Part shown: positions 3,026 through 14,213 of the stretch, in pieces
Numbering within the stretch: the stretch's first letter is position 1
How the letters are laid out: every line of letters begins with the position of its first letter
Notes under the pieces: generated by a model
Databases searched by the model: none
What the model saw: the letters and a program-made list of their open reading frames with translations, nothing else
Told to the model about the DNA's origin: nothing
IMG/VR virus record: IMGVR_UViG_3300033069_000781
Location: 1 to 64,000 of that record
From: a virus
Lineage: Duplodnaviria > Caudoviricetes
Length of the DNA: 64,000 nucleotides
Strand: one strand, 5' to 3'
Program-made: the position numbers and the translations under genes

Positions 3026-3244
3026 ATGACTACGATTCACTCAGCTTTCGCTTGGGATCAAGCCTGCAGGGCGCAGCTCAAGAGGGATGCAGCTGCAAAG
3101 GCGGGTCGGGTGGAGGTGGCGGTGGAAAAGAAGAGGAGGGAAAGGAAGAAGTTTGCCACTCCCCCCTCCACCTTGTTCCATGAAGCGCCGGAGTTCTGGG
3201 ACAGGATCTATAAGGCACTGATCCAGATGCGTCACGGAGCTTAG
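3026..3244 (+). CDS. hypothetical basic protein
   Basis: AAGGA RBS upstream. Confidence 0.65.
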   Translation: MTTIHSAFAWDQACRAQLKRDAAAKAGRVEVAVEKKRRERKKFATPPSTLFHEAPEFWDRIYKALIQMRHGA

Positions 3245-3480
3245 TCATAGGATTCATGTTGAAGTCCTCGCGTCGGGACTCTACTCAATAAAATGAGTAT
3301 GTGAATGGGAATGGTACACCTTTTGCGAAAGGTGTAATTGTCCATGAGCCCAAGGCGCACAGTTAATCCGGGGCGACTGTGAAGTACGCGGAGCGTTCGC
3401 AACAGAGTCGATGGTTGCGGGCAGTTGTGACTAGCACGTTATACCAGAAATGGTATAACGGGGCTTTGTGTAAATGACTA
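3245..3480 (+). ncRNA. structured ncRNA containing copy 1 of a repeated pseudoknot motif (3364-3432)
   Basis: ORF-free on +; several hairpins (TACACCTTT/AAAGGTGTA, CGTTATACCA-GAAA-TGGTATAACG); motif shared with 7190-7257. Confidence 0.6.
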
Positions 3481-3512
3481 AAGATGCTTCCTGACACAAA
3501 GGAACCAACGGT

Positions 3513-3743
3513 ATGATTAGAGACCCCGAATATAACAGAGGCTATAACGATGGCCTCCAAGGCAAGGAGTTCAAAGAGGCAGATTATGGTGGTCCCTACG
3601 GGATCGGCTATAGGGTCGGTAATACTGGGCTTGATTACATGAAGTATCAAAGCAAAAGCTGGACTGATGGGGAGCGCAAAGCCTACGCAAATGGCTACTC
3701 ACTGGGAGTACAGCATAAAAATCAGGGACGATTGTTAACGTAA
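3513..3743 (+). CDS. hypothetical protein with repeated Y..GY..G motifs
   Basis: AAGGAA RBS; YNRGYNDG, YGIGYRVG and YANGYSLG repeats. Confidence 0.7.
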   Translation: MIRDPEYNRGYNDGLQGKEFKEADYGGPYGIGYRVGNTGLDYMKYQSKSWTDGERKAYANGYSLGVQHKNQGRLLT

Positions 3744-3760
3744 AGCATAGAGGAGTCTAA

Positions 3761-4009
3761 ATGAAGATGGCACGTAGTGGTTTCACGTTACTAGAAGCGC
3801 TAATTGTTTGGGTAATAGTTGGTGCAGTATGGTGTGGCCTAGCGGCCCTATTAGCCCTATGGACTCAATGTGAGCTAGAGTTCTGGGTATCATACGTCAA
3901 AGGGGTTCCAAGTACTGTTCCGTTCTGGAAGGCTTGGGTGTGCTCTTTGCTTATCCCACCCTGTTTAGCTGCTAATATCATTTCGGAAATAGTGAGACTT
4001 TTCGTATGA
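3761..4009 (+). CDS. small membrane protein with a prepilin-type (class III) N-terminal cleavage motif
   Basis: RSG|FTLLEALIV followed by a hydrophobic helix; GAGGAG RBS. Confidence 0.7.
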   Translation: MKMARSGFTLLEALIVWVIVGAVWCGLAALLALWTQCELEFWVSYVKGVPSTVPFWKAWVCSLLIPPCLAANIISEIVRLFV

Positions 4010-4296
4010 TGCAATGGTTGTCATGGTCCAAAAAGAAAGCTAAACCTATGGAGCCCACACCCACAAAGATAATCCATTCACTACTTACTATGCAGGATGA
4101 TATTAATGATGGCGAAATTACCTTAGATCTATCTCAGGTAAGAGCTGTTACTCGAATAGGTAAGGATATCTTTATAAGCTATATAGGACTTTTAACTTCT
4201 GATGAACCGACATTGATTCACAGTAGTAGAGAGGGAGCTTTAACTCGTCATCAAGAGATAGTAGCGGCTTGGTTGAAGTACAAAAATAGAAAGTAG
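4006..4296 (+). CDS. hypothetical protein
   Basis: ATGA overlap with the upstream gene. Confidence 0.65.
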   Translation: MMQWLSWSKKKAKPMEPTPTKIIHSLLTMQDDINDGEITLDLSQVRAVTRIGKDIFISYIGLLTSDEPTLIHSSREGALTRHQEIVAAWLKYKNRK

Positions 4297-4304
4297 AGAA
4301 CTAA

Positions 4305-4766
4305 ATGCCGTGGGATAGGGATAGAATTGCTTCGGGAGAAAGAATGAATCGAACAAACGCGGAAACAAATCGTATTTTAGCCAATATTGGCTGTACCATT
4401 ATTCTCTTAGTGATACTGATCCCGATCATCTTTGGGATCAGGGGCTGTGCCGCCGGAATCAACCCCACCTATGAAAAGGACATGACCGTAATTGGTATTG
4501 TGACCACTATAGGTGAGAAGGGTTACTTCTGGACCTGCAATGAAGGTCATTGCTATGTCGGAGCATACGCCGACAACATCAATACCCAAATGAATATGAA
4601 TGCCCACTCCTGGGATTTCTCGGTCCCGGACCCAGAAGTAGCCAAGAAGGTTAAAGCACTCTCGGGTAAGAGAGTTAAGATCACCTATAATAGATGGTTT
4701 AGTTCACCTATATCCCAGGATACGCCGTATACAGTAACAGGGATCGAAGAAGATAAAGGAAAATGA
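4305..4766 (+). CDS. membrane-anchored hypothetical protein
   Basis: TM helix IILLVILIPIIFG; packed in an operon. Confidence 0.7.
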   Translation: MPWDRDRIASGERMNRTNAETNRILANIGCTIILLVILIPIIFGIRGCAAGINPTYEKDMTVIGIVTTIGEKGYFWTCNEGHCYVGAYADNINTQMNMNAHSWDFSVPDPEVAKKVKALSGKRVKITYNRWFSSPISQDTPYTVTGIEEDKGK

Positions 4767-4999
4767 AAGAAGAATCAGCCAAAGAAAGAAATAAGTGGGT
4801 ATTAGATCAGGATATCGGTGAATGTTTTACACGCGAAGACTTCAAACAGTACTGCATCGATAACTGGTTCATAGATGATGATGGCTTTGGGTACTATCTG
4901 GACCAAGACTATGGTAGAACCCATATAGTGTGCAAACCGTCCGAAATAGCCAATGGAATCGAACATCCCTATCCCTATGTGGTATGGTACAATGAATAA
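4763..4999 (+). CDS. hypothetical protein, tandem paralog 1
   Basis: F.DDDGFGYY and YPYVVWYN motifs shared with the next ORF. Confidence 0.75.
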   Translation: MKEESAKERNKWVLDQDIGECFTREDFKQYCIDNWFIDDDGFGYYLDQDYGRTHIVCKPSEIANGIEHPYPYVVWYNE

Positions 5000-5230
5000 A
5001 TGAGTAACAAGAACTACAAAACAAGACCCGTAACCGATTACGGCGATGTCATGACAACCAAATCATTCGTCAATGCCTGTATAGAGGGTGTATTCACTAA
5101 TGATGACGGGTATGGCTTCTATATGACTGATGCTAAAACCATGACCGATATCTACGTGGACTGCTATACCCCGAGACAACAGGAAGAACCAGTTCCTGAC
5201 TTTCCATATGTGGTGTGGTACAATAAATAA
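5000..5230 (+). CDS. hypothetical protein, tandem paralog 2
   Basis: FTNDDGYGFY and FPYVVWYN motifs. Confidence 0.75.
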   Translation: MSNKNYKTRPVTDYGDVMTTKSFVNACIEGVFTNDDGYGFYMTDAKTMTDIYVDCYTPRQQEEPVPDFPYVVWYNK

Positions 5231-5241
5231 AGGAAATAGAA

Positions 5242-5451
5242 ATGCCTAATGTCATCAAGGTAGGAGACAAAGAGAAGCATGTTATGATACCTGATGATTA
5301 TGAGCTTGTAATTCGATCGGATCTAGAATACGTAAAGGAAGGGGATAAATTCCTTAATCTGTTCAACAACCGATGGGATGATGTGGAATCTGACGATATC
5401 GGCATGCCTACTTCTCAGTTTGATTTCTTGATTCGAAAAGTAAATAAGTGA
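5242..5451 (+). CDS. hypothetical protein
   Basis: AAGGAAATAGAAATG initiation motif. Confidence 0.75.
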   Translation: MPNVIKVGDKEKHVMIPDDYELVIRSDLEYVKEGDKFLNLFNNRWDDVESDDIGMPTSQFDFLIRKVNK

Positions 5452-5455
5452 AATA

Positions 5456-5629
5456 GCCAGTGTAGCTCAAGAGGAAGAAGTGGTTCCATGGAAGCCACAA
5501 GAGCAAGTGAGAGCTGGATTAGAAGAAGCCTAACTCGAAGGCTTAGGGATTCACAAGCGCAAGGTCCAAGAGTTGGAGTGGCGTTAAACCCAATCCACAA
5601 GGTTGCATGTTCGAATCGTGCCAGTGGTG
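5456..5629 (+). ncRNA. expanded tRNA-like RNA with no canonical anticodon arm
   Basis: Acceptor GCCAGTG/CAGTGGT; TA-GCTC..GAGC D stem; T arm GCATG-TTCGAAT-CGTGC; about 100 extra nt in the D loop and anticodon position. Confidence 0.65.
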
Positions 5630-5654
5630 TTTGGTTTAAATAAAGGAAATAGAA

Positions 5655-5816
5655 ATGAAACATGAATTCTTTACCACAACTGATCTTGAAGAAAAAGGAA
5701 AGTCTGAGTATATCCTCGTTAAACAGATCACTAAGCGATCTATGTTGTGTCGGAACTCAAAAACTGGCGAACAAAGAATCTTCCTGAGTAATGGATGGGT
5801 TATCACATCTAAGTAG
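5655..5816 (+). CDS. small hypothetical protein (53 aa, not in the ORF track)
   Basis: AAGGAAATAGAAATG initiation motif; translates MKHEFFTTTDLEEKGK...ITSK*. Confidence 0.6.
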   Translation: MKHEFFTTTDLEEKGKSEYILVKQITKRSMLCRNSKTGEQRIFLSNGWVITSK

Positions 5817-5866
5817 CAATTACTTGTTGTAATTGCTGATTGTTTGAGTTTAAAGGAGTTAAAGTA

Positions 5867-6547
5867 ATGCGAATTCGAAATGTAATCGCGCTTGTTATGG
5901 GTCTCTGTCTCGGTTCAGTTCTGGCCATTGCACAGCCCATTGCGGGTCTCAGTAAGATCTCGGAGAATGAGGCGGACCCATGTGCCAATATTGGTACGCC
6001 CAGCAATCCCTATACAATGGGAAATTGCTGGAACTGCTACACCTCGAAGATCAAGGACTGCGATAGGCAGTTCGGTGAACCCGCTGCGAGACAGGCCTGC
6101 TATACCGGGGCTACCTCTCTGCTGACCTTCTGTCTTAATCAGACCGTTCCAGCGAATCCATCGACCCCAAAACCCAAGGGCCATGTGGCGCTTACTGGAC
6201 AAGCACTGACCTATCAAGTTCAGTTTGAGTATGAAGTACTCCCAGGAACCATCCATGTCCTCAGGGCCCAAACGGGTCGTGAGGTTCCGGCTCATGTTTG
6301 GTACAACGGAAACGAAATCACCGTTACCGTTGATGAGGAGAATCTGCCCGGAACTCCTGGAATCGATTTCGGCTTGATTACTGCTGTGAGTAACGGACAG
6401 GGATTTATTGGAGCCGAGGCCTGGACTTACAGGACCTATTCACCAGCGGATCTCGATCTGAATGGGGTTGTTGATATGTCGGATCTGGTCATTGCGATGG
6501 ATTCAGACATCAACTTCGAGGCCTTCTTCGATGAGTTCGTGAGGTAA
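5867..6547 (+). CDS. secreted Cys-rich protein with a C-terminal dockerin/EF-hand-like domain
   Basis: AAGGAG RBS before ATG 5867; signal peptide; C-terminal PADLDLNGVVDMSDL...NFEAFFDEF. Confidence 0.7.
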   Translation: MRIRNVIALVMGLCLGSVLAIAQPIAGLSKISENEADPCANIGTPSNPYTMGNCWNCYTSKIKDCDRQFGEPAARQACYTGATSLLTFCLNQTVPANPSTPKPKGHVALTGQALTYQVQFEYEVLPGTIHVLRAQTGREVPAHVWYNGNEITVTVDEENLPGTPGIDFGLITAVSNGQGFIGAEAWTYRTYSPADLDLNGVVDMSDLVIAMDSDINFEAFFDEFVR

Positions 6548-6624
6548 GGTTAGATAGAAGGATTACAGCACATGTAGGCTGCGTTGATGCTATAAAAATC
6601 CTATAGTGAGCAGCTTACTTTGAT

Positions 6625-6709
6625 GGGGTCGTCGTTTAGCCTGGCCAATAACAGAGCACTCATAATGCTCCGGAGCAATCCATCGTAGGTTCAAATCCTA
6701 CCGGCCCCA
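6625..6709 (+). tRNA. tRNA(CAT), Met or lysidine-Ile2, with an extended variable arm
   Basis: Acceptor GGGGTCG/CGGCCCC-A; anticodon arm GAGCA-CTCATAA-TGCTC; variable hairpin GGA-GCAA-TCC; T arm GTAGG-TTCAAAT-CCTAC. Confidence 0.85.
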
Positions 6710-6832
6710 TTTGCAGTTTATGGTTATGTAACTCAGAGTGACAGTTTAGACACATTGAATAAGCCTCCTCCCCTTCATGAACTTTGTGATTCATAAATGA
6801 AGGCACTAGTCTAGAATCACGACAAGACACGC

Positions 6833-6870
6833 ACCCATCTCTTGGTTTTATTACCGAGAGATGGGTTTTG
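6833..6870 (+). terminator. intrinsic terminator
   Basis: ACCCATCTCTTGGT..ACCGAGAGATGGGT hairpin followed by TTTG. Confidence 0.65.
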
Positions 6871-6906
6871 TTTGATTCATATAAACCAATTAAAGGAGAA
6901 ATAGAA

Positions 6907-7146
6907 ATGAAGATAACTGTTGAAGCCTTAACAACTGCGCAGAGGCATTTGATCTTAAATGCAGCTTTGAAGGACAGTACCTTTAGAGCTGATGCCAATT
7001 ATGGGCTACTTAACCATTTTGGTCAAGAGGCCTTCAAGAACGCTCAATTCGGACTGAAGATGGCTGGACTCATGAATGCAGACTACTCATTGACCACAAA
7101 GGGCAATGAATTGTTCAATAAATTAAGGGACGCAGAGGGCAGATAA
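6907..7146 (+). CDS. hypothetical protein
   Basis: AAGGAGAAATAGAAATG motif places the start at 6907 (MKITVE...). Confidence 0.7.
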   Translation: MKITVEALTTAQRHLILNAALKDSTFRADANYGLLNHFGQEAFKNAQFGLKMAGLMNADYSLTTKGNELFNKLRDAEGR

Positions 7147-7154
7147 AACGACAC

Positions 7155-7780
7155 ATAATTCGGTGAAGTAATTCACTGAGTTATGGAGGTAATCCGAGCG
7201 CCTTAACAAGTCTTGGAGCGCTTACAGCAGGGTCGATGGTTGTAGGCAGTAGCGACCACCTCCACTAGGGCCGAAAGGTCTTAGTCGAGTTTAGTCTCTT
7301 TATCTAGCGGACTCTAAATGAGCTAGATAACTCTACGTTGCCCATAGCGTAGGTTAAAGTCGGATTATCCACATGGGATATAGTCGGTACTAAGTATGCT
7401 CTGGTGTCGATTGAACTTAATACATGCTAAGACAGTACTGGGTATACTCAGTCAGTACTGGTAATACTTGGGCTGAGTTATTTTGATCGAGTCCGGGGTA
7501 CCTTTGATCAGGTATCTCGGATTTTCACAAGTCCACTTATCCGAAGGACTATAAAGAATAAGGATAGGCGATCCCAGGTAAATAACACGTATAGTAAACA
7601 TTTACCATATAACATTGTCGAACATGCCGCTCACGGGAAAGACACATCACCTACCCTGATGTAAATAATGGGTAACTGGGCCTGACAACCCTTTTAATCG
7701 CTTGGTCTGGGTCACGTAAGCTCCAGCTGTCTCTGGAAAAGTGGACCCAGTTTAATTGGTGGAGACATCAATACAAGTTT
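7155..7780 (+). ncRNA. block of structured ncRNA(s) including copy 2 of the pseudoknot motif (7184-7264)
   Basis: About 620 nt with no + ORF; near-continuous hairpins (CTAGGGCC-GAAA-GGTCTTAG, TTATCTAGC/GCTAGATAA, TCCGGGGTACCT/AGGTATCTCGGA+TTTT, CTGGGTCAC/GTGGACCCAG). Confidence 0.6.
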
Positions 7781-7812
7781 TGCCAATAATAAAACCATAA
7801 AGGAGCATAGAG

Positions 7813-8157
7813 ATGAAAGTAGTAGCAGGAGCTGTATTTGGAGAATGGACAGTACTAGCGTATATGAATGCAGAGGAGGTTCACTGTCGGTGTAGTTGTG
7901 GTACATTGAGCTGTCTAGGGGCGGGTAGCCTAAGAAATAAAAAGAGCACAAGGTGTTTTGAGTGTGGAAATAAGTTACGAGGTCAGAACGCCACATATAA
8001 ACCAAGGAAGTACAAAACCAGCGCACGCAGGATAAGTGAAATATATGACTTAAACTATACATACGTTTTAGATTGCTTTCGAAGACTCGGGGAGATTGAG
8101 ACATTAAAATACCTAGAACAAAAAAGGATTCAAAAGTATGAACGCGCTATCAGATGA
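7813..8157 (+). CDS. Cys-containing protein resembling the N-terminal module of phage HNH/AP2 endonucleases
   Basis: FG.WTVL..C.CSCG..L..KST.C..C pattern; AAGGAG RBS. Confidence 0.6.
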   Translation: MKVVAGAVFGEWTVLAYMNAEEVHCRCSCGTLSCLGAGSLRNKKSTRCFECGNKLRGQNATYKPRKYKTSARRISEIYDLNYTYVLDCFRRLGEIETLKYLEQKRIQKYERAIR

Positions 8158-8559: not shown

Positions 8560-9405
8560 TTTAAGCTAAGTAATTAGCATAATTAACTGCTTAACGCATA
8601 ACTGCATTAAGCTAAGTTTTCGACCTTTCATGGGAAGTGCGCCTTCAGTACCATGAGAGGAATATTAAAGGCGATACAGTCGAGGAGATCGCGGGAGGTT
8701 CTCGAATAGAGCTTAAGTCTGCCGATGCTGTTCAGTGGCTATACCCTAGCGCTGGGCCTAAGATAGGACCGGGACTCCCGCTGTAGTCTTTAATAAAGGC
8801 TATTACGGGAGAGACCGGTTCACTAGGGTTACTAGGTCTCCGGGTATCGCACGGTACCCGGAGATTTTTCAGCCGTTGCTCTAGCCATTCAGTAACGGTA
8901 ACGCAAAAGAGTGGATCACTACACATAGGAGTATAGCGATAACAATGTGTAGGAAATGTACGTTAGCGAAAACCAAGCTAAACGATTATCGCTTAGTACG
9001 GCACTATTAATGGAAACATTGGTAGTGCTTTTAATCAAATTAGATGGGACGATACGGGTCTAGCCCCGTTATGCGGTAAATCGCATATGGTGTAAGCCGA
9101 AAGGCCAGAGTAACATCCTCCCCAGGAATGGTAGAAGCCTTAGTTACCCCGAGCGGACGGAACTCTGCTATTCGAACCCGAGAGAGAATCGGGAGTGTAT
9201 CTCGCTGACCCTAAACAAGTCAGCTTATCTTATACCTAAATGTACCGCCGGACTAGGGCCCTAGTCTATACGGGCCTAATAGCCCGTGGCGGTATTTTAA
9301 TAGAACTGCTTTATATGAATAGGTTTCGAATGCTCGATTGGGACTACAACAATGTGATGTTACCAACGTCTCAGTCATTACTTGTCGAGACCTATTCATA
9401 CCTAG
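8560..9405 (+). ncRNA. large structured ncRNA block (one long RNA or several tandem small RNAs)
   Basis: About 850 nt with no credible ORF; more than 10 hairpins, several followed by T-runs (near 8865, 9030, 9295). Confidence 0.6.
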
Positions 9406-9416
9406 CAGTCTAATTT

Positions 9417-9488
9417 ATGGGGGTAGCTCAATATATAGAGCGCTCGGAGCAATCCGAGAGATTAGGGGCGAAAACCCCCTCCCCCCAC
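9417..9488 (+). ncRNA. tRNA-like RNA with a GCAA tetraloop in place of the anticodon loop
   Basis: GGGGG/CCCCC acceptor; TA-GCTC..GAGC D arm; CTCGGA-GCAA-TCCGAG arm; T-like arm AGGGG-CGAAAAC-CCCCT. Confidence 0.6.
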
Positions 9489-9498
9489 TTTGGTTACG

Positions 9499-9567
9499 TG
9501 CAGGTTGGCTTAGCCTGGTTCAAGGCTGCGTTCAGCGTATTCACTGGTTCGAATCCAGTAATTGCAG
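9499..9567 (+). ncRNA. tRNA-like RNA with a truncated anticodon arm (loop TTCAG)
   Basis: Acceptor TGCAGGT/AATTGCA; D arm GCTT..AAGGC; TGCG-TTCAG-CGTA arm; T arm ACTGG-TTCGAAT-CCAGT. Confidence 0.65.
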
Positions 9568-9579
9568 TGTCAGTTTTTG

Positions 9580-10332
9580 TTAAACTAAATATCTACTTTT
9601 TCTTAGCTTACTTTCAAGATCTGCATGACAGTTTAAACATAGTAAATCACATTTGGATAATTCACTTTGTAACGTAGCTTCTGGACAACTACAAAAAGTT
9701 AAAATGTCTAATTTGAAGGATTTTAACTGAGGATCTCTGTGATGAAAAGATAAGCACCTAAGAAGTTTATTGTAACCACACATAGAGCACCCACCACCTA
9801 GCTGATCTACAACTAATTGTTTGCGTCTAGCTCCTTTTGTTCTTTGGTTATTTTTGTGCTTATACGAAGCTTCAATTCTATGCTCTTCTTCCATGTGACA
9901 ATTTTTGCATAATAGATCACACTTAGCTAGCTCTTGTAATACCAAAGACCAAGGTTTACCCCTAATAGCTGTAGTACTCAATCCGAAGCTTTTAAGTTTT
10001 CTTTCTCTGTGGTGGAAAGTTAAAACAGCTAAGTTGTCCGAGTAACCACAGGCATAGCATTTACCCCCTAAGAGGTTAACAATTCTTCGCTTCAGTCTCC
10101 AACCCCGAAGTGTTACACATTTTCGATTACGTGCTTTTCGTTTCTCGGTCCACTTTCTGTAGGCTCTTTCTTGCTTAACAACGGTGACAGGGGAATCGGA
10201 TATGTCAGGTCTGGTGTTGTGGAAACCAAAAGGTGAGCAAGTTAGGCAGAATTTCCTTCTCTGAAGATTCCTACGCTTTCCGTCAATGATTATATGAAGC
10301 GGAATTTTAGTATCGCACTTATTGCAATTCAT
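9580..10332 (-). CDS. HNH endonuclease with two tandem HNH domains
   Basis: LGG.C..CGY...L.FHHR...EL.KCDLLC.NCH occurs twice; likely start ATG 10332, with TATAAT 6 nt upstream. Confidence 0.85.
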   Translation of the reverse strand: MNCNKCDTKIPLHIIIDGKRRNLQRRKFCLTCSPFGFHNTRPDISDSPVTVVKQERAYRKWTEKRKARNRKCVTLRGWRLKRRIVNLLGGKCYACGYSDNLAVLTFHHRERKLKSFGLSTTAIRGKPWSLVLQELAKCDLLCKNCHMEEEHRIEASYKHKNNQRTKGARRKQLVVDQLGGGCSMCGYNKLLRCLSFHHRDPQLKSFKLDILTFCSCPEATLQSELSKCDLLCLNCHADLESKLRKSRYLV

Positions 10333-10362
10333 ATGATTATTATACACTAGTAAAGGAATTAT

Positions 10363-10647
10363 ATGAAGTATAGACAGTGTGTTAGGAGTGGTTTCTGCTG
10401 TAAGCAAGGCCCATGTTGGCACGGAGAATCTATATCAAATAGTAATCCTCAGTGCAAGTTCCTAGAAATAGAGAGTACCCAGAAAATAGGAGATGAGGAG
10501 ATCACTCTTCATAGGTGCGGAATATATGAGCAAATTAAAGATCTCCCAGGAGCCGATGTCAACCCCGCCTTCGGAGCTGGCTGCTGCTCCACAATGTTCA
10601 ACCGAGACCGGGACAGAATTATCGCCCTTACTATCTCTCCCAATTGA
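10363..10647 (+). CDS. YkgJ-like Cys-cluster (Zn/Fe-S) protein
   Basis: CVRSGFCC, C.FL, C.IY and GCC motifs; AAGGAA RBS. Confidence 0.65.
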   Translation: MKYRQCVRSGFCCKQGPCWHGESISNSNPQCKFLEIESTQKIGDEEITLHRCGIYEQIKDLPGADVNPAFGAGCCSTMFNRDRDRIIALTISPN

Positions 10648-11016: not shown

Positions 11017-11256
11017 ATGCAAGAAGTAGCCCAAGAATACGAAGACGCACAGAGTATAAGAGAAGAGGGCGACGGCTACAGCTACGGCGACGGCTACAGC
11101 AACGGCTACGGCTACGGCGACGGCTACAGCAACGGCTACGGCTACGGCTACGGCGACGGCTACAGCAACGGCTACGGCGACGGTTACGGCGACGGTTACG
11201 GCGACGGTTACGGCTACGGCTACGGCTACGGCGACGGTTACGGCTACGGCTGGTAA
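11017..11256 (+). CDS. Gly/Tyr/Asp low-complexity repeat protein (GDGYGYG)
   Basis: AAGGAG RBS; tandem GACGGC/TACGGC codon repeats at 11068-11250. Confidence 0.7.
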   Translation: MQEVAQEYEDAQSIREEGDGYSYGDGYSNGYGYGDGYSNGYGYGYGDGYSNGYGDGYGDGYGDGYGYGYGYGDGYGYGW

Positions 11257-11946: not shown

Positions 11947-12059
11947 CTCAACCTGTAGACCTGATCGGAAGTTCCATGACTAATGTGAAAAGTTGGTCAG
12001 AACAGATATGCACTTATGAGAATAAGGTGCTGAGTGGGTTAAAGTCCCATATACAGGTT
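11947..12059 (+). ncRNA. class II tRNA-like cloverleaf RNA
   Basis: AACCTGTA/TACAGGTT closing stem; arms TGACTAA/TTGGTCA and GCACTTAT-GAGA-ATAAGGTGC; T arm GTGGG-TTAAAGT-CCCAT. Confidence 0.5.
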
Positions 12060-12677
12060 TTTGTTTGTTAAATGCATTATATCTAGTATGTAATTAAGGT
12101 ATGGCAACCCAGAATTAGGGGTGAATCTTTTGAGATCTGATACGTCGATGGTATGTAGTGATACTCCTGCCTTCAAGCAATCATCTACCTTCTTTACGTC
12201 ATTAGTTTGAATCGAGTTTAACTTCTTAACCCCATATATAGGCTTATAGTGAAATATACCGTTTAATTCAAAGGCTAGATGTAATACGGGAATGTAGATG
12301 TCTAGCTCAGACCCTACCGTATCTTTTCGGTTAAAGTGTATGTCACAATCTGGGTATAGTCTGCTCAACTCCTGTTCTAGGTACAACTCAAGTTTACTTC
12401 TACGCGTGCCGTAAGTTTTATTTCGATTGTTATAGGTGGCAGCACAAGACTTTGAGCAGAAATTATTCGGACTAATATAACTTGGATGGCGTAATAGCTT
12501 AAGATTGCAGGACTTGCAGAATAATGTATGCATTGGCTGCCTATTGTATAGACCTTGACATACCCCAGAGCAGAATGTATGTTTGTCTCCTCTCTTCATA
12601 CTTGCGTCATGTTGGGCTTTTACCCTTTCGATTGGTTTTGCGCAATGATCGCAAGTTAATTGTATAGTTGTTAGCAT
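12039..12677 (-). CDS. Zn-finger plus Vsr/DUF559-like endonuclease (free-standing homing-type)
   Basis: FCS..C repeats, SKLE, ELDIYIP..LAFELNGIFHY; likely start 12677 downstream of TGCTATCAT. Confidence 0.8.
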   Translation of the reverse strand: MLTTIQLTCDHCAKPIERVKAQHDASMKRGDKHTFCSGVCQGLYNRQPMHTLFCKSCNLKLLRHPSYISPNNFCSKSCAATYNNRNKTYGTRRSKLELYLEQELSRLYPDCDIHFNRKDTVGSELDIYIPVLHLAFELNGIFHYKPIYGVKKLNSIQTNDVKKVDDCLKAGVSLHTIDVSDLKRFTPNSGLPYLNYILDIMHLTNKNLYMGL

Positions 12678-12700
12678 ATAACTGTATGATAGCATAAACA

Positions 12701-14187: not shown

Positions 14188-14213
14188 ACCAATTCTTGCA
14201 GGCCTGCAAGAAT
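14188..14213. repeat. palindromic repeat, copy 1
   Basis: ACCAATTCTTGCAGGCCTGCAAGAAT, identical over 26 bp to 46944-46969. Confidence 0.9.

Follow-up and report, generated by a model that had tools for sequence, protein, structure and literature searches.

Within the first 64 kb of the 119-kb linear virus record IMGVR_UViG_3300033069_000781, a stretch of 64,000 nucleotides (nt) which we call the window and whose numbering is used unless the contig is named, we identified two copies of an RNA motif of about 75 nt, located at 3358-3432 and 7184-7257 on the plus strand. The motif is real and is absent from the catalogue of known RNA families. It probably folds into one compact domain of about 75 nt, in which two tandem H-type pseudoknots of nearly equal geometry are joined by the sequence GCG-Y. 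We tentatively propose, with a probability of roughly 0.3, that it represents an undescribed class of small self-cleaving ribozyme (or a ligand-binding RNA) with twin tandem pseudoknots, carried by a large phage with a probable planctomycete host, and that it would process an island of tRNAs and non-coding RNAs (ncRNAs).

Two copies of one RNA motif

A first-pass annotation of the window had reported two dispersed copies of a structured motif in blocks free of open reading frames (ORFs), and both points were upheld. A core pattern had exact matches at 3390-3432 and 7215-7257 and none in 100 shuffles, and the local alignment of the two copies scored 53, against a mean of 15 and a maximum of 26 for shuffled sequence (0/1000). 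Considered separately, the similarity of the 3' half was reached in 0/1000 shuffles and that of the 5' half alone in 25/1000. No credible ORF covers either copy. The bases of the loops, inter-stem segments and linker are identical between the copies, while the stems differ. The similarity ends at the motif borders, where no homology between the flanks was found, and an extension of the homology into these unrelated flanks was accordingly rejected. The 119-kb contig contains only these two copies; a third, partial site at contig position 94535 was rejected since it lies inside a gene.

Each copy is also held by an independent contig, copy 1 in run X2 (3100-3703, zero differences) and copy 2 in run X4, which belongs to another study (7141-7489, one difference), and this excludes an assembly artefact. 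Among the labelled runs that contain this DNA, most are river metagenomes. On the minus strand the G.U pairs of the motif become mismatches, so the plus strand is taken to be the RNA strand.

Probable twin pseudoknots and the alternative junction

The 3' half of the motif is an H-type pseudoknot consisting of a 7-bp stem, a 2-nt loop, a 5-bp second stem, 3 nt between the stems and a 7-nt crossing loop. Both stems are fully paired in both copies and all differences between the copies keep pairing, for which simulation gave a chance of ~0.022 (first stem) and 0.148 (second stem). The covarying 3' pseudoknot proposed earlier therefore stands. The 5' half had been read as a hairpin, which fell short of the full pairing: a second pseudoknot is predicted to arise here from pairing between the variable stretch and the 5' flank. 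In this twin-knot model the heptamer ahead of the conserved AAUCC pairs with the beginning of the variable stretch, and UCCG of the loop with YGGA. The predicted geometry (7-bp stem, 2-nt loop, 4-bp stem, 3-4 nt between the stems, 7-nt crossing loop) is nearly that of the 3' knot, and the crossing loops of both knots contain AGU. The new 5' stem forms 13 of 14 pairs in a common register (joint test, 21/20000 shuffles) and includes 3 double changes, three of four double changes keeping the pairing. Such pairing of the variable stretch would account for the difference between the copies in the middle of the motif.

Taken as a whole, the twin-knot model has 43 of its 44 cells paired with 6 double-sided changes, a result reached in 1/500 shuffles, and slid registers of the same model are just 30-52% paired. 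A structure-only descriptor returned both copies and one low-complexity match in 11.2 Mb, and since it was built from the copies themselves this speaks for specificity only. When pseudoknots were ignored, isolated units of 91-95 nt folded no better than shuffles (z 1.35 and 0.0).

In the competing fold, 7184-7190/7258-7264 closes a three-way junction. All 40 of its 40 cells are paired, with 4 double changes, but only if the closing stem is shortened to 3 pairs to suit copy 1; 37/500 shuffles do as well. The closing stem described earlier for copy 2 does exist (7/7 pairs) but is specific to that copy, as copy 1 retains 3/7 pairs and the joint test (2960/20000) is at chance level. Copy 2 may fold either way. 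Drawn from two sequences only, the predicted twin-pseudoknot structure is nevertheless better defined than the one first proposed.

Table 1. Predicted elements of the two motif copies and adjoining features (window coordinates)
Feature	Position	Strand	Description
Putative phage promoter	2602-2641	+	sixth copy of a genome-wide repeated motif
Hairpin upstream of copy 1	3316-3337	+	GNRA-capped
Copy 1, pseudoknot A	3358-3392	+	stem 3358-3364/3375-3381 (7 bp), loop AA; second stem 3367-3370/3389-3392 (4 bp), 4-nt inter-stem loop; crossing loop 3382-3388 (7 nt), holds AAGU
Copy 1, linker	3393-3396	+	GCG-Y, conserved in the alignment; joins the two knots
Copy 1, pseudoknot B	3397-3432	+	stem 3397-3403/3414-3420 (7 bp), loop AG; second stem 3406-3410/3428-3432 (5 bp), inter-stem AUG; crossing loop 3421-3427 (7 nt)
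Hairpin directly 3' of copy 1	3437-3460	+	strong; not homologous to that of copy 2
Orphan ORF	3513-3743	+	76 aa; 80 nt downstream of copy 1
Hairpin upstream of copy 2	7154-7186	+	GNRA-capped; just past the stop of ORF 6868-7146
Copy 2, pseudoknot A	7184-7217	+	stem 7184-7190/7200-7206 (6/7 pairs, 5 contiguous), loop AA; second stem 7193-7196/7214-7217 (extendable to 6 bp), 3-nt inter-stem loop; crossing loop 7 nt, holds AAGU
Copy 2, linker	7218-7221	+	GCG-Y, conserved
Copy 2, pseudoknot B	7222-7257	+	stems 7222-7228/7239-7245 and 7231-7235/7253-7257
Copy-2-only strand	7258-7264	+	can pair with 7184-7190 (7 Watson-Crick pairs); competes with pseudoknot A
Hairpin directly 3' of copy 2	7265-7284	+	GAAA-capped

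Search for relatives

Rfam 15 gave nothing over either copy at E<=5 for the window or E<=10 for local searches, except a 19-nt match to HIV-1_SD at E 7.2. The lack of a catalogued family is thus borne out by covariance-model search, permissive thresholds included. Pattern scans of IMG/VR and GTDB contained no homologue among the matches listed, those of the JGI metagenomes gave nothing beyond chance, and blastn against phages and plasmids found no homologue. The same result was obtained with two covariance models and a mismatch pattern on about 50 terminase-related phage records, which are distant (30-58% terminase identity) and mostly incomplete, and 151-401 Phycisphaerae genomes and 151 Planctomycetota genomes likewise yielded no instance of the motif. 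Of three near-matches, L363 and L369 were rejected as lying inside long ORFs and L156 as reading like coding sequence. Built from two sequences, the covariance models could overlook diverged relatives.

The first-pass annotation had held that a lack of homologues retaining the pairings would refute the structure, and none were found in the collections searched. This weakens the structural claim without refuting it, because the phage is very isolated, its closest terminase relatives being 58% identical. That no third example turned up would also suit a duplicated structured RNA which has lost its function and is drifting, its two paralogues being alike by descent. We consider such a relic very improbable, as the changes in both 3' stems and three of the four double changes in the 5' stem have kept pairing while the flanks have lost all similarity.

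A possible self-cleaving ribozyme

The first 13 kb of the window form an island of small ORFs, tRNA-His, transfer-messenger RNA (tmRNA), tRNA(CAT) and long ORF-free structured blocks, and both copies lie in it. As a function for the motif we rank first, though tentatively, self-cleavage in cis that processes the long transcripts of this island. The ranking is based on the size of the motif, its double-pseudoknot build, its invariant unpaired bases, the dispersal of its copies without a common gene context, and the presence of island transcripts that need cutting; the tRNA-His, tmRNA, tRNA(CAT) and tRNA-like RNAs all need processing. In size and double-pseudoknot build the motif is like known small ribozymes. 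Small ribozymes are enriched near phage genes (PMC10085705), and HDV-like theta ribozymes adjoin phage tRNAs (PMC10879173). In the proposed mechanism both copies would be transcribed from the plus strand within long phage transcripts, the two knots would pack into one fold, and the domain would cut the long tRNA/ncRNA island transcripts in cis, freeing the downstream mRNA (copy 1) or the ncRNA block (copy 2). By loose analogy with pistol, the general base might be the G of the GCG after knot A and the cut might fall at the GU step in the crossing loop of knot B (3424/3425 and 7249/7250).

Pistol ribozymes consist of a stem-loop pseudoknot followed by GCG, a P3 helix and a GU step. With pistol and the pseudoknot hammerhead the motif shares a 5' stem-loop with a pseudoknotted loop, an A-containing strand crossing the stem, GCG, a helix and GU, and its knot A, GCG linker and 7-bp stem follow in the pistol order. 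However, its pseudoknot has 4 bp, a second pseudoknot forms on the P3-like loop, and there is only a 7-nt connector, while pistol has a 6-bp pseudoknot, a P2 helix and a CAGA turn before the pseudoknot strand (PMC11300833). The hammerhead core (CUGANGA and GAAA, pseudoknot and permuted forms included) is absent on both strands. The signature words of twister are absent from the copies, and the pseudoknot hairpin of the motif lies outside the UCC/GGA helix, whereas in the P1-NAA-P2 arrangement of twister it is enclosed by P2. HDV-like and theta ribozymes are likewise small, have two pseudoknots and occur in phage tRNA regions, but the knots of the motif are tandem, not nested as in the HDV fold with its catalytic C in J4/2, and no tRNA 3' end is adjacent. 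An HDV descriptor found nothing for copy 1, and near copy 2 gave one loose match that used downstream hairpins and not the motif helices. For hairpin, hatchet, twister-sister, glmS and the group I core, searches for conserved core words and Rfam were both negative. Signature, descriptor and Rfam tests agree with the first-pass annotation, which could not match the motif to twister, pistol, hammerhead, HDV/theta or glmS.

The motif also resembles the raiA motif (RF03072) in that its GUCG-AU-G pairs with a YGAY strand, next to which lies a pseudoknot strand of 7 nt. It lacks P3b, P4 and a conserved P1, and differs in order and geometry from the raiA topology, which comprises P3a-AU-P3b with an A-rich bulge, P4, PK1, PK2 and a conserved P1 (PMC12968392, PMC11751092). 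RF03072 did not match at E<=10, both copies were missed by profiles made from 14 genuine raiA RNAs, and the two-copy model R1 found no significant match on raiA loci (best E 1.1). A raiA-derived core was rejected, given the negative Rfam, profile and reciprocal searches.

Several observations weigh against a self-cleaving ribozyme and the fold assumed for it. Neither copy carries the catalytic signature of any known ribozyme class, and neither lies next to a tRNA as theta ribozymes do. Base triples lead one to expect conserved loop bases in any H-type pseudoknot. The structure, and with it the covariation, was read off just two sequences which are related by duplication. The 5' stem of copy 2 (hairpin -2.6 kcal/mol) is weak compared to the stronger closing stem (duplex -14.4), and the two are mutually exclusive. 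Finally, the single RNA run covers 5984-6218 only, i.e. neither copy.

Tandem H-type pseudoknots have precedents, although the motif itself is uncatalogued. They are found about 40 nt apart in the type III antitoxins ToxI, CptI and TenpI and in the phage-borne pseudo-ToxI, and the two predicted knots of the motif have a spacing of 39 nt. It is conceivable, if doubtful and slightly less probable than self-cleavage, that the motif acts as a protein-binding decoy, that is, as a two-unit ligand for a host protein, e.g. a type III antitoxin mimic that would neutralise a toxin ribonuclease while the phage infects its host. Pseudo-ToxI repeats allow phage TE to escape ToxIN (PMC5086642), and some tenpI loci contain two non-identical pseudoknot repeats (PMC12283969). 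In the motif, however, the knots share little sequence and are not repeats of each other, the 4-nt linker leaves no single-stranded tails, and no A-rich tail, spacer or stretch is present. The copies are dispersed, have no Rfam antitoxin match, and have neither a linked toxin gene or toxin-like neighbour (Pfam/PHROG) nor a terminator next to them, in contrast to the promoter-repeats-terminator-toxin operon of type III systems. At most, the motif is akin to a double-pseudoknot ribozyme or a two-unit antitoxin, and it has the defining features of neither. Of the earlier interpretation, the part concerning a structured RNA with a covarying 3' pseudoknot holds good, and the functions it suggested, a ribozyme, an aptamer or a protein-binding RNA, may each apply.

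Surroundings of the two copies

Copy 1 lies between an ORF at 3026-3244 and the orphan ORF, and copy 2 follows ORF 6868-7146 and opens a 650-nt structured block. Both copies come after a stop codon and are flanked by hairpins (Table 1), and they have no common position ahead of a gene. The hairpin that precedes copy 2 shares its final bases with the outer pairs of the predicted 5' stem of this copy. Going upstream from copy 1, and assuming read-through also from copy 2, the putative promoter is the first to be met; the other copies of this promoter-like repeat are at contig positions 80611, 86395, 89625, 92130 and 113823, and no further degenerate ones were found. The nearest tRNA/tmRNA ends are at 2229 and 6710.

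Because the predicted folding of the block 7150-7800 is much more stable than that of shuffles (z -5.3) and both copies sit between hairpins behind a stop codon, the motif might be a stability or folding module, i.e. an exonuclease block or a domain of a larger RNA (7147-7800 in the case of copy 2), with neither catalysis nor a ligand. In a variant of this explanation it could adopt the three-way junction, which also pairs all of its cells. We find this explanation unlikely: the flanks are unrelated and the unit is therefore self-contained, a mere barrier needs no invariant linker bases, and the junction has weaker support than the twin knot (37/500 vs 1/500), with just three closing pairs in copy 1. 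The remainder of the block after copy 2 (7265-7800) is hairpin-rich and ORF-free, has no Rfam match and contains several AGUC/GACU words that call group I P7 to mind.

Among aptamers, the H-type pseudoknot with conserved inter-stem bases is a frequent fold (SAM-II, preQ1, NAD-II), and the motif resembles these and the SAM/SAH riboswitches in its H-type knot and its conserved inter-stem and loop bases. A ligand-binding aptamer, whether riboswitch or metabolite sponge, would use the invariant inter-stem bases as a pocket, and copy 1 would then control the orphan ORF, 80 nt ahead of which it lies. The ribosome site of this ORF is predicted to be in a hairpin, and the phage encodes NAD salvage and nucleotide enzymes. 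Such a function appears distinctly unlikely, since the Shine-Dalgarno site (3498-3503) is predicted to be paired whether the core is formed or not, the next gene after copy 2 is ~550 nt away and no terminator lies close to this copy, and the motif was not found in the sampled genomes of the likely host group. The motif further differs from the H-type riboswitches in its twin-knot build and in having no Rfam match and no consistent expression platform, and neither copy combines a position 5' of a gene with a switchable platform. A bistable switch through long-range helices (7188-7197/7361-7370 and 3385-3394/~3463-3472) was rejected, these alternative helices being at chance level (96/200 and 75/200). 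As the pairing of the ribosome site is unchanged by the core and the long-range helices are at chance, no switch is supported. A local hairpin at 3480-3520 is predicted to occlude the ribosome site and the start of ORF 3513-3743.

The phage and its RNA island

The record is estimated to be 47% complete. The contig encodes a terminase, DNA polymerase, NAD-dependent ligase, RNA polymerase subunits, TilS and NAD salvage genes, and from this content we infer a large phage with its own transcription machinery. Reverse transcriptase and Cas/IscB/TnpB were not seen among the best 25 Pfam or NCBIfam families listed for the contig of this 47%-complete genome. The dockerin-like tail of ORF 5840-6547, as judged by inspection of its sequence, suggests a host among the Phycisphaerales, and a planctomycete host is probable. 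The signal-peptide region of this dockerin-like gene (5882-6040) is variant in run X2, with 17 differences. Another palindromic element, which might be a late promoter or operator, is repeated in 4 copies at contig positions 14191, 46947, 74053 and 105222.

Within the island, the tRNA-His and the tmRNA (tag ADNSNLRMAA) lie at 1804-2229 and the CAT-anticodon tRNA at 6624-6710; given TilS on the contig, the latter may be tRNA-Ile2. A tRNA-like scaffold with large insertions at 5457-5630 was missed by ARAGORN and Rfam. It contains a GGAUUA complementary to the conserved UAAUCC of the motif, and a trans-pairing screen of the motif against the other island RNAs gave nothing specific. Two tandem degenerate tRNA-like units are present at 9416-9490 and 9505-9577. 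In an 850-nt structured block (~8690-9235), which has no Rfam match, 8715-8721 can pair with ~9222-9227 around a bulged U. We take this helix to be like P4 of RNase P, and by eye the 3' end of the block presumably resembles the CR-V word; the block could be a very diverged RNase P-like RNA, or the likeness could be due to chance. HNH/homing-endonuclease-like ORFs adjoin structured blocks at 7813-8157, 9580-10422 (minus strand) and 12039-12695 (minus strand), and a small ORF of Gly-Tyr-Gly-Asp repeats is located at 11017-11256.

Significance

To our knowledge, only about a dozen classes of small self-cleaving ribozymes are known. If the motif is a new class, it would matter for our understanding of RNA catalysis and as a tool. 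Should it prove to be a decoy or an aptamer instead, a phage of a host group that has hardly been studied would have a new counter-measure or sensor made of RNA. The short length of 75 nt makes synthesis and testing inexpensive.

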